The notes beneath the pieces are model-generated. The model searched no databases. It was not told where the DNA came from and worked only from the letters and a program-made list of their open reading frames with translations. Source: Escherichia phage EPIMRB01. Taken from it: a stretch of 64,000 bases of DNA. A program made the translations under genes and the position numbers. Position 1 is the stretch's first letter, and each line of letters begins with the position of its first letter. Below, one piece after another: positions 36,364 through 37,191 of the stretch. The stretch is taken from sequence record PQ657784; one strand, given 5' to 3'.

Positions 36364-36439
36364 TGGTCGAGGCAGTAGGGATCGAACCTACGACCTAGGA
36401 CTTAGAAGGTCCTTGCTCTTCCTTCTGAGCTATGCCTCG
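36364..36439 (-). tRNA. tRNA-Arg (anticodon UCU)
   Basis: Cloverleaf folded by eye: 7-bp acceptor, D-stem GCTC/GAGC, anticodon loop CTTCTAA, T-loop TTCGATC, encoded CCA. Confidence 0.8.
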
Positions 36440-36443
36440 GATT

Positions 36444-36518
36444 TGGCGGACGTGATAGGATTCGAACCTATAACCAATCGCTTAACAGGCGATCGCTCTG
36501 CCATTGAGCTACACATCC
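36444..36518 (-). tRNA. tRNA-Asn (anticodon GUU)
   Basis: Acceptor GGATGTG/CACGTCC, D-arm AGCTCAATGGCAGAGC, anticodon loop CTGTTAA, T-arm, CCA. Confidence 0.7.
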
Positions 36519-36522
36519 AAAT

Positions 36523-36609
36523 TGGTGGGGAGTGATGGAGTCGAACCACCCGAGTCGCAATGACAATGAATTTACAGTCCACACCGCTACCTCTACGGGA
36601 TAACTCCCC
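36523..36609 (-). tRNA. tRNA-Tyr (anticodon GUA), long variable arm; D-arm non-canonical
   Basis: Perfect acceptor GGGGAGT/ACTCCCC, anticodon loop CTGTAAA, T-arm GGTGG-TTCGACT-CCATC, CCA; D-stem pairs only weakly. Confidence 0.6.
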
Positions 36610-36618
36610 AAATTAATT

Positions 36619-36693
36619 TGGTGGCCCTGGGTGGAATTGAACCACCATCTGGCGATTATGAGTCGCTTGCTTGAACCTTCCAGCTACAGGGCC
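36619..36693 (-). tRNA. tRNA with CAU anticodon (tRNA-Ile2-like; Met not excluded)
   Basis: Acceptor GGCCCTG/CAGGGCC, anticodon loop CTCATAA, T-arm, CCA. Confidence 0.7.
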
Positions 36694-36694
36694 T

Positions 36695-36770
36695 TGGTGC
36701 TGATTGACGGAATCGAACCGCCGACCTTCTCATTACAAGTGAGTTGCTCTTCCTTCTGAGCTAAATCAGC
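36695..36770 (-). tRNA. tRNA-Thr (anticodon UGU)
   Basis: Acceptor GCTGATT/AATCAGC, D-arm AGCTCAGAAGG, anticodon loop CTTGTAA, T-arm, CCA. Confidence 0.8.
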
Positions 36771-36775
36771 AAAGC

Positions 36776-36865
36776 TGGCGGAGGCGATAGGATTTGAACC
36801 TATGAGTCGCCGGAGCGACTGCCGGTTTTCAAGACCGGTGCATTAAACCACTCTGCCACGCCTCC
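36776..36865 (-). tRNA. tRNA-Ser (anticodon UGA), long variable arm
   Basis: Acceptor GGAGGCG/CGCCTCC, anticodon loop CTTGAAA, long extra arm, T-arm GGTTCAAATCC. Confidence 0.8.
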
Positions 36866-36867
36866 AG

Positions 36868-36941
36868 TCTCCATACAAGGATTTGAACCTTGGACCTCCT
36901 GATCCCAAATCAGGCGCTCTACCAAACTGAGCTACACGGAG
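36868..36941 (-). tRNA. tRNA-Pro (anticodon UGG), CCA not encoded
   Basis: D-arm AGCTCAGTTTGGTAGAGC, anticodon loop TTTGGGA, T-arm GGTTCAAATCC; acceptor includes G-U pairs. Confidence 0.7.
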
Positions 36942-36951
36942 TAAATTAAAT

Positions 36952-37025
36952 TGGAGCGGATAATGAGAATCGAACTCACATCATCAGATTGGAAGTCTGA
37001 GGTAATGCCATTATACGATATCCGC
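36952..37025 (-). tRNA. tRNA-Gly (anticodon UCC)
   Basis: Acceptor GCGGATA/TATCCGC, anticodon loop TTCCAAT, T-arm GAGTTCGATTCTC, CCA. Confidence 0.8.
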
Positions 37026-37030
37026 AAATT

Positions 37031-37119
37031 TGGTGCGAGAAGTGGGACTCGAACCCACAAGGAAATCATTCCGCAGCATTTTAAGTGCTGTGCCTTTACC
37101 AATTTGACCATTCTCGCGC
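37031..37119 (-). tRNA. tRNA-Leu (anticodon UAA), long variable arm
   Basis: Acceptor GCGCGAG/CTCGCAC, anticodon loop CTTAAAA, long extra arm, T-arm GGTTCGAGTCC, CCA. Confidence 0.8.
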
Positions 37120-37191
37120 TGGGAATAAAGGACTTGAACCTTTGCATCCTGGAATCAAAATCCAGTGCCTTACCAACTTGGCTAATTCCCA
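37120..37191 (-). tRNA. tRNA-Gln (anticodon UUG), CCA not encoded
   Basis: Acceptor TGGGAAT/ATTCCCA, anticodon loop TTTTGAT, T-arm GGTTCAAGTCC. Confidence 0.75.

Follow-up and report, generated by a model that had tools for sequence, protein, structure and literature searches.

In the 64,000-nt stretch of Escherichia phage EPIMRB01 analysed here (sequence record PQ657784; hereafter the window), ARAGORN run over the whole 64 kb identified ten tRNA genes and no others, all on the minus strand between positions 36364 and 37191, with 0-10 nt between neighbouring genes of the cluster. In transcription order these encode Gln, Leu, Gly, Pro, Ser, Thr, a tRNA with a CAU anticodon, Tyr(GUA), Asn(GUU), and Arg. 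An earlier sequence-only reading had proposed the same ten genes, coordinates, anticodons, and order, with which ARAGORN on this interval agrees, and the Rfam tRNA covariance model independently supports nine of them. All genes except Tyr were matched over the full length of RF00005 (model positions 1-71 of 71) at 59.3-74.1 bits (E values from 2e-15 to 3e-11), above the gathering threshold of 29 bits.

Gene content of the cluster and its downstream region

The first gene, tRNA-Gln (UUG; 37118-37191, 67.3 bits), does not encode its CCA end and is 65/74 identical to those of T4, T2, and wV7. Eight of the nine differences lie in the anticodon arm, which is a rare allele relative to these three phages. 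It is followed by tRNA-Leu (UAA; 37031-37117, 59.3 bits), a class II tRNA with an encoded CCA and 87/87 identical to T4, tRNA-Gly (UCC; 36952-37025, 63.3 bits; 73/74 identical to T4), and tRNA-Pro (UGG; 36867-36941, 66.8 bits; 75/75 identical to T4, CCA not encoded). tRNA-Ser (UGA; 36776-36865, 62.6 bits) is also class II, has its CCA encoded as in T2, and is identical to the T2 gene at 90/90 and to the T4 gene at 87/90 positions, and tRNA-Thr (UGU; 36695-36770, 68.2 bits) shares 71/76 positions with T4. The CAU gene (36619-36693) is 75/75 identical to those of T2 and wV7. tRNA-Tyr (GUA; 36523-36609) is class II, with A73 and an encoded CCA, and matches the T2 gene at 87/87 positions and the T6 gene at 86/87; its stems covary among homologs, as described below. 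tRNA-Asn (GUU; 36444-36518), with G73 and an encoded CCA, has the top Rfam score in the cluster (74.1 bits) and is 75/75 identical to T2. The last gene, tRNA-Arg (UCU; 36364-36439, 68.1 bits), is a T2/RB-type allele (75/76 identical to T2).

Downstream of tRNA-Arg, and likewise on the minus strand, is a 116-aa ORF (35997-36347) that belongs to phrog_3355 (E = 8.5e-55) and is unassigned in function; the flanking ORFs fall only into PHROG families of unknown function, and a Pfam search of them gave no match. The ORF separates the tRNA genes from two stable RNAs. The first is a homolog of T4 rnaD, the species 2 stable RNA (35886-35997, minus strand; 96/119 identical in a local alignment to the T4 annotation), in which the outer stems are kept and the internal hairpin is replaced relative to T4. 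The second is a homolog of rnaC, the species 1 stable RNA (35741-35879, minus strand), which has a tRNA-like T-arm and is 137/139 identical to the annotated T4 rnaC. Both were found by homology to the T4 annotation, Rfam families giving sub-threshold noise only in the region 3' of Arg. A sequence scan and alignment showed an intrinsic terminator at 35667-35690 on the same strand, consisting of a 10-bp hairpin (7 G-C) with a T run after it and conserved in T4 and T6; the tRNA/stable-RNA transcription unit probably ends here. As in T4, the cluster would be made as a polycistronic precursor from which the tRNAs would be released by RNase P of the host and by 3' processing enzymes. The Gln and Pro tRNAs would also need the host CCA-adding enzyme.

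Identity of the CAU tRNA

By default ARAGORN labels the CAU gene as elongator tRNA-Met, and the corresponding T2L gene has been named both tRNA-Met and tRNA-Ile in the literature (PMC2330249). In the window gene, positions 4-69 and 5-68 are both C-G, as in E. coli ileX, where metT has U-A and A-U. C4:G69 and C5:G68 are the identity pairs of E. coli TilS (PMC11947777, citing Ikeuchi 2005), and on these pairs the Met label was set aside. The core of the anticodon stem (GCGA/UCGC) is also that of ileX, unlike metT, and overall identity is 58/76 to ileX vs 52/77 to metT. The CAU tRNA is thus Ile2-like, as the sequence-only reading had proposed from the letters, and is predicted to be a lysidine-dependent reader of AUA.

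A segB-free operon of the T2/RB type

The sequence-only reading credited T4 with eight tRNAs, for Gln, Leu, Gly, Pro, Ser, Thr, Ile, and Arg, and with neither Tyr nor Asn, which the T4 annotation bears out. It regarded Tyr and Asn as simply additional to this set, and the comparison does not bear that out. Homology between T4 and the window is limited to 37297->36674 and 35997->35658. The two phages have in common the genes from Gln to Thr, rnaC, the terminator, and the genomic position (from the trna.2-4/ipI side to the e.8 side), whereas T4 has segB, lacks Tyr, Asn, and the 116-aa ORF (missing at the same site in the alignment, and present in T2 and wV7), and carries other alleles of Ile and Arg. 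The window CAU gene is identical to T4 Ile at 47/75 positions and the window Arg gene to T4 Arg at 48/76, and judged by its sequence the latter is not orthologous to the T4 gene. T6 is a mix, with a T4-type Ile, a window-type Tyr, segB, and a T4-type Arg.

No segB homolog was detected in the window, a tblastn search with T4 SegB giving no match better than E = 2. Gene order, the absence of segB, and near-identity to T2/RB alleles together characterise a segB-less operon of the T2/RB type. We consider it very probable that the locus is such a segB-free T-even tRNA operon, serving codon supply and a partial buffering against tRNA-cleaving immunity. The eight-gene form of T4 would then be the variant, in which a cassette of T4-type Ile, segB, and T4-type Arg would have taken the place of the segment that holds most of CAU, Tyr, Asn, Arg, and the ORF. 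This direction, with the segB cassette inserted instead of Tyr and Asn gained, is suggested by the biology of homing endonucleases.

Codon demand and tRNA-cleaving immunity

The sequence-only reading proposed two functions for the Tyr and Asn genes, adaptation to codon usage and replacement of host tRNAs depleted or cleaved during infection, and these are the two found in the literature. Relative to a host sample of only 38 coding sequences, Tyr is enriched 1.83-fold and Asn 1.36-fold in the phage, with UAU at 2.07-fold and AAU at 1.74-fold; by absolute excess demand AAU ranks fourth and UAU fifth. The eight core tRNAs all read A-ending codons, which are enriched 1.4-3.3-fold. Codon usage is compatible with the first of these functions. 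The tRNAs would supplement those of the host in reading the A/U-rich codons that a genome of 35% G+C favours, a relation for which the data show compatibility, not causation.

These enrichments also support a narrower explanation, in which Tyr, Asn, and the other eight genes are kept only to meet the codon demand of an AT-rich proteome and have no role against immunity. We regard it as possible, though rather unlikely. Excess demand is larger for AAA (Lys) and GAA (Glu), yet there is no phage tRNA for either; T4, of the same composition, does without Tyr and Asn; and in E. coli K-12 a single 50-kb stretch holds four Asn genes, and tyrU is present too. E. coli K-12 also has tyrT and tyrV; tyrU differs from tyrT in the variable loop, as expected of two isoacceptors. 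Finally, the phenotype of the T6 Tyr gene is linked to defence (PMC13096335).

For an operon that combines codon supply with buffering, the evidence on Tyr is direct and comes from work on the close relative T6 and on T5 (PMC13096335, PMC11555353), which lends substance to the replacement of cleaved host tRNAs. [quoted passage not shown] 2026, PMC13096335). Overexpression or amplification of T6 tRNA-Tyr rescues the phage from Septu, deletion of the T6 tRNA region sensitises it, T4, which has no Tyr gene, fails to escape Septu, and T2 resists it (PMC13096335). In addition, T5 tRNA-Tyr counters retron-Eco7 (Azam et al. 2024, PMC11555353). The window gene belongs to the targeted tRNA species and is nearly identical to the validated T6 allele (86/87), with an identical variable arm that includes the mapped C48 cleavage site. 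By analogy, it would buffer against Septu PtuAB, a role shown for the T6 gene. Septu also cuts T6 tRNA-Tyr itself, at C48 (PMC13096335), and any protection would therefore act by dosage or as a decoy, not by resistance. The T6-type amplification route is absent because segB is absent; unlike T6, the window has no adjacent segB, and SegB-driven tandem amplification is not available in cis. Further points counted against the preferred explanation of codon supply with partial buffering are these: the anticodon loops of the window Tyr and Asn are those of the host, and the resistance of T2 to Septu only possibly depends on its tRNA-Tyr. Bacterial Schlafen tRNases, considered as a link to T-even Tyr and Asn, were set aside, as the paper deals with T5 and other tRNAs.

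The second immunity system of relevance is PARIS, whose nuclease AriB cleaves in the context U36AAUC|N41, which the host tRNAs Lys, Thr(UGU), and Asn(GUU) share; a change of U39 abolishes cleavage (Belukhina et al. 2025, PMC12409363). Compared with the actual tRNA genes of E. coli MG1655, positions 36-41 of the window Asn are UAAGCG vs host UAAUCC (U39->G, C41->G), and those of the window Thr are UAAUGA vs UAAUCA in host thrU (C40->G). Both genes have thus lost the AriB context at the level of sequence, and both may be AriB-insensitive. In this departure from the host cleavage context they resemble the T5 Lys, Thr, and Asn tRNAs that act against PARIS. The window differs from T5 in that ARAGORN found no tRNA-Lys(UUU) in its 64 kb, so that the full anti-PARIS set of Lys and Thr (with or without Asn) is not present. 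T4, with Thr alone, is PARIS-sensitive, and the T5 tRNA-Lys rescues it (PMC12409363). Even if AriB does not cut its Asn and Thr, a phage that has no tRNA-Lys of its own would not overcome PARIS through these two alone. Among the matches listed, no T5-like phage has a close relative of the T-even Asn allele; identity is at least 95% in T4-like coliphages and then at most 82%. The locus is an example from an active field, that of phage tRNAs countering Septu/retron PtuAB and PARIS AriB, on which work has already been done in T6, T5, and T4.

Possible gene conversion by SegB

The preferred cut site of SegB lies inside the tRNA-Asn gene of segB-less T-even phages, and the region is converted in mixed infection (PMC2330249). 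The published 27-bp site is wholly within the T2L Asn gene (PMC2330249), and the window Asn, 75/75 identical to T2, carries the predicted preferred site, assuming that the T2 record equals T2L there. The RAWTSGAAC motif (from PMC13096335) occurs in the window Asn at 36459. In crosses of T4 with T2L about 1250 bp are excluded, and the Met-Tyr-Asn-Arg segment of T2L is almost wholly lost (PMC2330249). Presence of Tyr and Asn could accordingly be set mainly by SegB gene conversion and not by selection on the tRNAs, the genes being near-neutral passengers. Besides the cut site and the exclusion in crosses, this account draws on the breakpoints that flank segB in T4 and T6 and on the placement of three of the seven RAWTSGAAC motifs of the window within the 828-bp cluster. 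The T-even tRNA region is moreover dispensable in the laboratory (PMC2330249), which counts against a functional explanation. We nevertheless judge passenger status improbable. The Asn gene hardly varies, with 316 records at ≥99% identity. Tyr homologs have reached unrelated phage families and show compensatory changes there, an indication of purifying selection. The deletion of the T6 tRNA region also has a Septu phenotype (PMC13096335).

T4 thrives without Tyr and Asn, an observation likewise counted against a functional explanation.

Architecture of the tRNA-Tyr gene

Rfam gave the Tyr gene a best clan match to tRNA-Sec at 29.9 bits, with a gathering threshold of 47, the RF00005 score being masked by clan competition. 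The gene has a 7-bp acceptor stem, a 5-bp anticodon stem closing a 7-nt loop (U33, GUA), and a 5-bp T-stem carrying a TTCGA-type loop. The sequence-only reading described these acceptor, anticodon, and T-arms as perfect and the D-arm as poorly paired; the latter is an artefact of register. In tRNAs the link between acceptor stem and D-stem is near-universally two nt, and the Tyr gene does not have this usual 2-nt connector (nt 8, 9). Its D-stem is formed by nt 12-15 with 23-26 and leaves a 4-nt connector, UAUC, after the acceptor stem. The shifted D-stem is perfect; across homologs it is paired in 56/56 cases, with connectors of 4-5 nt in the relatives. The D-arm with a 2-nt connector was rejected, as it is paired in 33/56 cases and, in a separate scoring, in 62.5% of cells, with one pair at 0/14. 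It contains a C:C mismatch, and the shifted cloverleaf is favoured over it by 6.7 kcal/mol. In an independent viral sample, 17/62 strictly formed Tyr tRNAs required the 4-nt connector.

Every stem is kept in 14 Tyr homologs from about ten phage genera, with 99.2% of cells paired and double-sided changes in nine pairs, a level of covariation reached in 0/500 shuffles. The acceptor stem was scored by direct parse, since MAFFT mis-registered the 5' ends of homologs with 5-nt connectors. A 3-bp stem in the variable arm, UGUCAUUGCGACUCG, covaries as well. E. coli TyrRS recognises a class II long variable arm, GUA, and the discriminator A73. The window gene shows these bacterial-type features, from which charging is predicted.

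That Tyr is a decayed pseudogene, leaving nine working tRNAs, is very improbable: the sub-threshold tRNA-Sec match, the C:C mismatch in the standard register, the label 'tRNA-Pseudo-GTA' on a 1-nt variant in a tRNAscan-style record of phage SP1, the pseudogene flag on the FelixO1 homolog, and the homologs with 5-nt connectors missed by ARAGORN stand against the retained stems and covariation, the fully paired shifted D-stem, the occurrence of the gene in 1335 phage records, and the T6 gene, which is seen on a Northern blot and rescues infection (PMC13096335). Covariation together with the published T6 expression and rescue (PMC13096335) were the grounds for rejecting both a pseudogene and a chance cloverleaf. 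The sequence-only reading named rejection of the Tyr and Asn candidates by tRNAscan-SE as evidence against them; the SP1 label formally goes half of the way there and is overridden by the same covariation and T6 experiments.

The tools under-score Tyr because its acceptor-to-D-stem connector is longer, and the 'pseudo' calls in other records arise because a 4-nt connector precedes the D-stem. tRNA-Tyr genes of the T-even/T5/rV5/FelixO1 type are thus real but under-scored by ARAGORN, Rfam, and tRNAscan-style pipelines, and 'pseudo' calls for them in phage genomes are to be distrusted. We tentatively suggest that the gene represents a widespread phage class II architecture, with a 4-5-nt connector, a fully paired 4-bp D-stem, and a compact D-loop of 7-8 nt, that is functional (as in T6) and underscored by the tools, and whose altered core could change recognition by nucleases or modification enzymes; separately, Asn and Thr might escape AriB. 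The T-even and phage-tRNA defence literature covered, in which no search was aimed at this feature, contains no description of the long connector.

Comparison with known T-even phages

The cluster is an ordinary, long-documented, and already known tRNA operon of T2/RB-type relatives of T4. The unusualness implied in the sequence-only reading is not borne out. Published tRNA counts are eight for T4, nine for T2, seven for T6, and ten for RB3, RB14, RB18, RB26, and LZ2 (Petrov et al. 2010, PMC2993671), and ten is the most frequent count in sequenced T-even-type phages (PMC2993671, Table 2). Maps of T2L, RB1, and RB3 with Met(CAU)-Tyr-Asn-Arg were published in 2008 (Brok-Volchanskaya et al., PMC2330249). 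At the cluster, the window is 100% identical to Escherichia phage AUBRB02, which is T4-like by its closest relatives; over its full length the cluster is 98.2-98.6% identical in RB10 and RB27, and at least 80% of it is covered in 397 phage records. At ≥95% identity the Asn gene is found in about 351 records and the Tyr gene in about 495. A tRNA count unlike that of T4 is normal T-even variation, driven by homing-endonuclease cassettes, and no reason to flag a genome; for genome scanning, the value of the result is that of a calibration point.

T2L, RB1, RB3, and the ten-tRNA RB/LZ2 genomes have an identical gene set and order, lack segB, and carry an ORF 3' of Arg, with RNA species 2 and 1 beyond it, as in the window. 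T5-like Tyr genes belong to the same sequence family at about 83% identity. The CAU, Tyr, and Asn genes of T2 are 100% identical to those of the window and its Arg differs at a single position, whereas an ORF replaces Thr in T2, leaving nine tRNAs, and in the window Thr is present and the ORF is not. From the T2/RB systems in general, the window differs in the rare anticodon-arm allele of its tRNA-Gln.

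Gene content and prevalence of the cluster

ARAGORN identified exactly ten tRNA genes in the whole 64-kb window, all on the minus strand at 36364-37191. In transcription order they are Gln UUG, Leu UAA, Gly UCC, Pro UGG, Ser UGA, Thr UGU, CAU, Tyr GUA, Asn GUU and Arg UCU, with intergenic spacers of 0-10 nt. The Rfam tRNA model, which is independent of ARAGORN, gave hits of 59-74 bits for nine genes, all but Tyr (highest for Asn, 74.1 bits). Anticodons and order are thus as the sequence-only reading had stated, and its count of eight tRNA genes for T4 was borne out by comparison with that phage. 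The CCA end is encoded in eight genes, all except Gln and Pro.

That reading was correct in what it observed, but by implying that Tyr and Asn made the cluster exceptional it took the common state for the exception. Escherichia phage AUBRB02, whose nearest relatives are Tequatrovirus phages, is 100% identical in the tRNA region and has the same ten tRNAs annotated. Coverage of the 828-bp cluster reaches 80% or more in 397 phage records, including RB10, RB27 and Sf23 at 98-99%, and the Tyr and Asn genes occur at ≥95% identity in about 495 and about 351 records. Ten tRNA genes each are listed for RB3, RB14, RB18, RB26 and LZ2, nine for T2 and RB51, eight for T4 and RB32, and seven for T6 and RB15 (Petrov et al. 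2010, PMC2993671, Table 2), which makes ten the modal count for T-even-type phages. Some phages have eleven genes, among them wV7, in which His GUG separates Asn from Arg. For T2L, RB1 and RB3, maps of the tRNA region published in 2008 (Brok-Volchanskaya et al., PMC2330249) show tRNA-Met(CAU), Tyr, Asn and Arg together with RNA species I and II, and no homing-endonuclease gene segB. The cluster is the ordinary, well-documented and already known tRNA operon found in T-even phages without segB.

The optional T-even tRNAs (Tyr GUA, Asn GUU, and His GUG in wV7-type phages) all have GUN anticodons, and the eight core tRNAs have U34 or C34 throughout, reading A-ending codons or AUA. GUN-anticodon tRNAs are the queuosine family and the colicin E5 target set. 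This anticodon split suggests that the optional set is under a different selective rationale from the core set. Arg(UCU) (36364-36439) and Thr(UGU) (36695-36770, both minus strand) share an identical 20-nt stretch, UAGCUCAGAAGGAAGAGCAA, at positions 8-27, and this identity suggests that one of the two originated as a duplicate of the other whose anticodon then changed.

The CAU and Gln tRNAs

The CAU tRNA (36619-36693) is labelled Met by ARAGORN default. It has C4:G69 and C5:G68, which are major identity elements for E. coli TilS (PMC11947777), and its anticodon-stem core equals that of E. coli ileX; metT instead has U4:A69 and A5:U68. The earlier assignment as Ile2-like is supported by these features. 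Read by eye, its D-loop, GAAGGUUC, has G at the A14 place and C at the A21 place, and is identical in T2 and wV7. A14 and A21 are almost universal in tRNA D-loops.

tRNA-Gln(UUG) (37118-37191, minus strand) differs from the T4/T2/wV7 allele at 9 of 74 positions, eight of them in the anticodon arm (CUGGA-UUUUGAU-UCCAG in the window vs UAGCA-CUUUGAC-UGCUA in T4), with the stem fully compensated. The loop is that of E. coli glnU, and the exact arm was present in only two IMG/VR contigs. The allele could have arisen by recombination, or by a swap of the anticodon arm under selection from nucleases.

The tRNA-Tyr gene and its D-arm

Tool support for the Tyr gene (36523-36609) is mixed. It is called as a tRNA by ARAGORN, and in Rfam it gives only a sub-threshold tRNA-Sec match (29.9 bits; gathering score 47). 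Among its homologs, that of FelixO1 is annotated as a pseudogene and three close ones are not called by ARAGORN, and a tRNAscan-style annotation labels a 1-nt variant in phage SP1 'tRNA-Pseudo-GTA', the kind of call that the sequence-only reading would have taken against the gene. Comparative evidence overrides this call. Across 14 aligned homologs, which represent about ten phage genera (Tequatrovirus, rV5-like, Karamvirus, Moonvirus, Phapecoctavirus, T5-like, FelixO1, Klebsiella T4-likes, one Enterococcus phage and one Acinetobacter phage), compensatory change preserves the acceptor, anticodon, variable-arm and T stems. In the covariation count 99.2% of cells were paired, with double-sided changes in nine pairs; none of 500 shuffles was as good, and slid controls fell to 37-60%. 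The gene encodes A73 and a long variable arm of the bacterial type. The T6 gene, identical at 86 of 87 positions, gives a Northern blot signal and rescues infection (PMC13096335). Covariation and the T6 data together largely rule out a pseudogene, and on the comparative evidence we consider the Tyr gene real.

The D-arm had been described as poorly paired. This appearance is an artefact of assuming that the acceptor stem and D-stem are two nucleotides apart: with this standard 2-nt connector, 33 of 56 D-stem cells are paired (62.5% in a second count) and all 14 sequences have C:C at one of the pairs. With the register shifted by two, all 56 cells are paired (CCGU at 12-15 with GCGG at 23-26), including one C-G to U-A double change, and the compact D-loop, AGAGGUA, shows A14, G18-G19 and A21 at their canonical places. 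Folding energy also favours the shifted cloverleaf, by 6.7 kcal/mol (-24.6 vs -17.9 kcal/mol), and the standard connector was rejected. The connector of the family is UA plus 2-3 variable nucleotides, i.e. 4-5 nt; the homologs with 5 nt are those that ARAGORN misses. An independent scan of viral contigs (IMG/VR), parsed without an assumed motif, gave 62 distinct, strictly formed Tyr(GUA) tRNAs, of which 20 fit a 2-nt connector and 17 only a 4-nt one, the latter with five different D-stem sequences. The pseudogene calls that pipelines make for this phage tRNA-Tyr family are explained by the non-standard connector and shifted D-stem. This arrangement may be the sole mildly new item here; no description of it turned up in the literature consulted on the tRNA cluster.

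Possible functions of Tyr, Asn and Thr

Codon-usage adaptation and replacement of cleaved host tRNAs, both proposed from the sequence, are the right candidate functions. Among host defences that cleave tRNAs, retron-Eco7 is countered by T5 tRNA-Tyr (PMC11555353). Similarly, against Septu EcB88, which cuts tRNA-Tyr in its variable loop, T6 plating is restored by overexpression or SegB-driven amplification of T6 tRNA-Tyr, and deletion of the tRNA-rich region sensitises T6 (PMC13096335). T6 tRNA-Tyr is not spared, being cut at C48 (PMC13096335), and so acts through its dosage. T6 has segB to amplify tRNA-Tyr, whereas the window has no segB for amplification. T4, without Tyr, is unable to escape and T2 is resistant (PMC13096335); the T2 gene is identical to that of the window (87/87) and may contribute to this resistance.

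For Asn (36444-36518), a counter-defence role is inferred. AriB, the nuclease of PARIS, cuts three E. coli tRNAs at U36AAUC|N41, namely Lys(UUU), Thr(UGU) and, as a secondary target, Asn(GUU), and cleavage is abolished by a U39 change (PMC12409363). At positions 36-41 the window has UAAGCG in Asn (host UAAUCC) and UAAUGA in Thr (host UAAUCA). These departures from the host cleavage context make AriB insensitivity of both tRNAs plausible, but altered Asn and Thr without a phage tRNA-Lys would not defeat PARIS.

Codon supply is compatible with the enrichment seen when 81 window ORFs (17,866 codons) were compared with 38 annotated E. coli K-12 CDS (12,057 codons): Tyr usage is 1.83x and Asn 1.36x that of the host sample, UAU 2.07x and AAU 1.74x, with AAU fourth and UAU fifth in absolute excess demand. 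It is not sufficient alone, since AAA and GAA are in greater excess yet have no phage tRNA, T4 of equal composition does without Tyr and Asn, and four Asn genes are already present in the host.

Transcription unit and mosaic relationship with T4 and T6

A simple sigma-70 scan gave no convincing promoter directly upstream of Gln. Downstream of Arg, all on the minus strand, lie a 116-aa ORF (36347-35997; phrog_3355, function unknown; no Pfam match), a homolog of T4 rnaD (species 2; 35997-35886, 96/119 identical, outer stems kept and the internal hairpin replaced), a homolog of rnaC (species 1; 35879-35741, 137/139 identical, with a tRNA-like T-arm) and a strong intrinsic terminator (35690-35667) common to T4 and T6. 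The 116-aa ORF is shared with T2 and wV7, but is absent from this site in T4. Beyond the terminator, about 520 bp before the e.8-side homology have no T4 counterpart at that position and include a 157-aa ORF (35139-35612, minus strand; phrog_2280, unknown function).

The window departs from T4 by more than the addition of Tyr and Asn. Identity to T4 is 93-100% for Leu, Pro, Gly, Ser and Thr, but CAU matches T4 tRNA-Ile at only 47 of 75 positions and Arg its T4 counterpart at 48 of 76; against the T2 and wV7 alleles, CAU and Arg reach 99-100% identity. Two unrelated CAU/Arg(UCU) allele pairs are found in T-even phages, the T4-type pair travelling with segB. By BLAST, one block of T4 homology extends from 37297 to 36674, where it stops about 20 nt inside the CAU gene, and a second covers 35997 to 35658. 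The intervening 676 bp comprise the remainder of CAU, Tyr, Asn, Arg and the 116-aa ORF, where T4 has the remainder of its Ile gene, segB and T4-type Arg. No segB homolog was found anywhere in the window.

The preferred 27-bp SegB site lies wholly within the tRNA-Asn gene of segB-less phages, and in T4 x T2L co-infection a roughly 1250-bp T2L segment (Met, Tyr, Asn, Arg) is almost completely replaced (PMC2330249). The Asn gene of the window is identical to that of T2 (75/75) and contains RAWTSGAAC, a motif described at SegB sites (PMC13096335). The window has seven copies of this motif, three of them inside the 828-bp cluster at 36459, 36710 and 36967 (plus strand), within the T-arm region of the Asn, Thr and Gly genes, respectively. 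SegB cutting in the Asn gene of a segB-less phage would lead to replacement of the Met-Tyr-Asn-Arg segment by the segB cassette. Given this site and the replacement in crosses, the absence of Tyr and Asn from T4 is most readily explained by the cassette, with the direction of change inferred from homing biology. T6 is a third mosaic, with T4-type Ile, window-type Tyr, segB and T4-type Arg, and without Asn.
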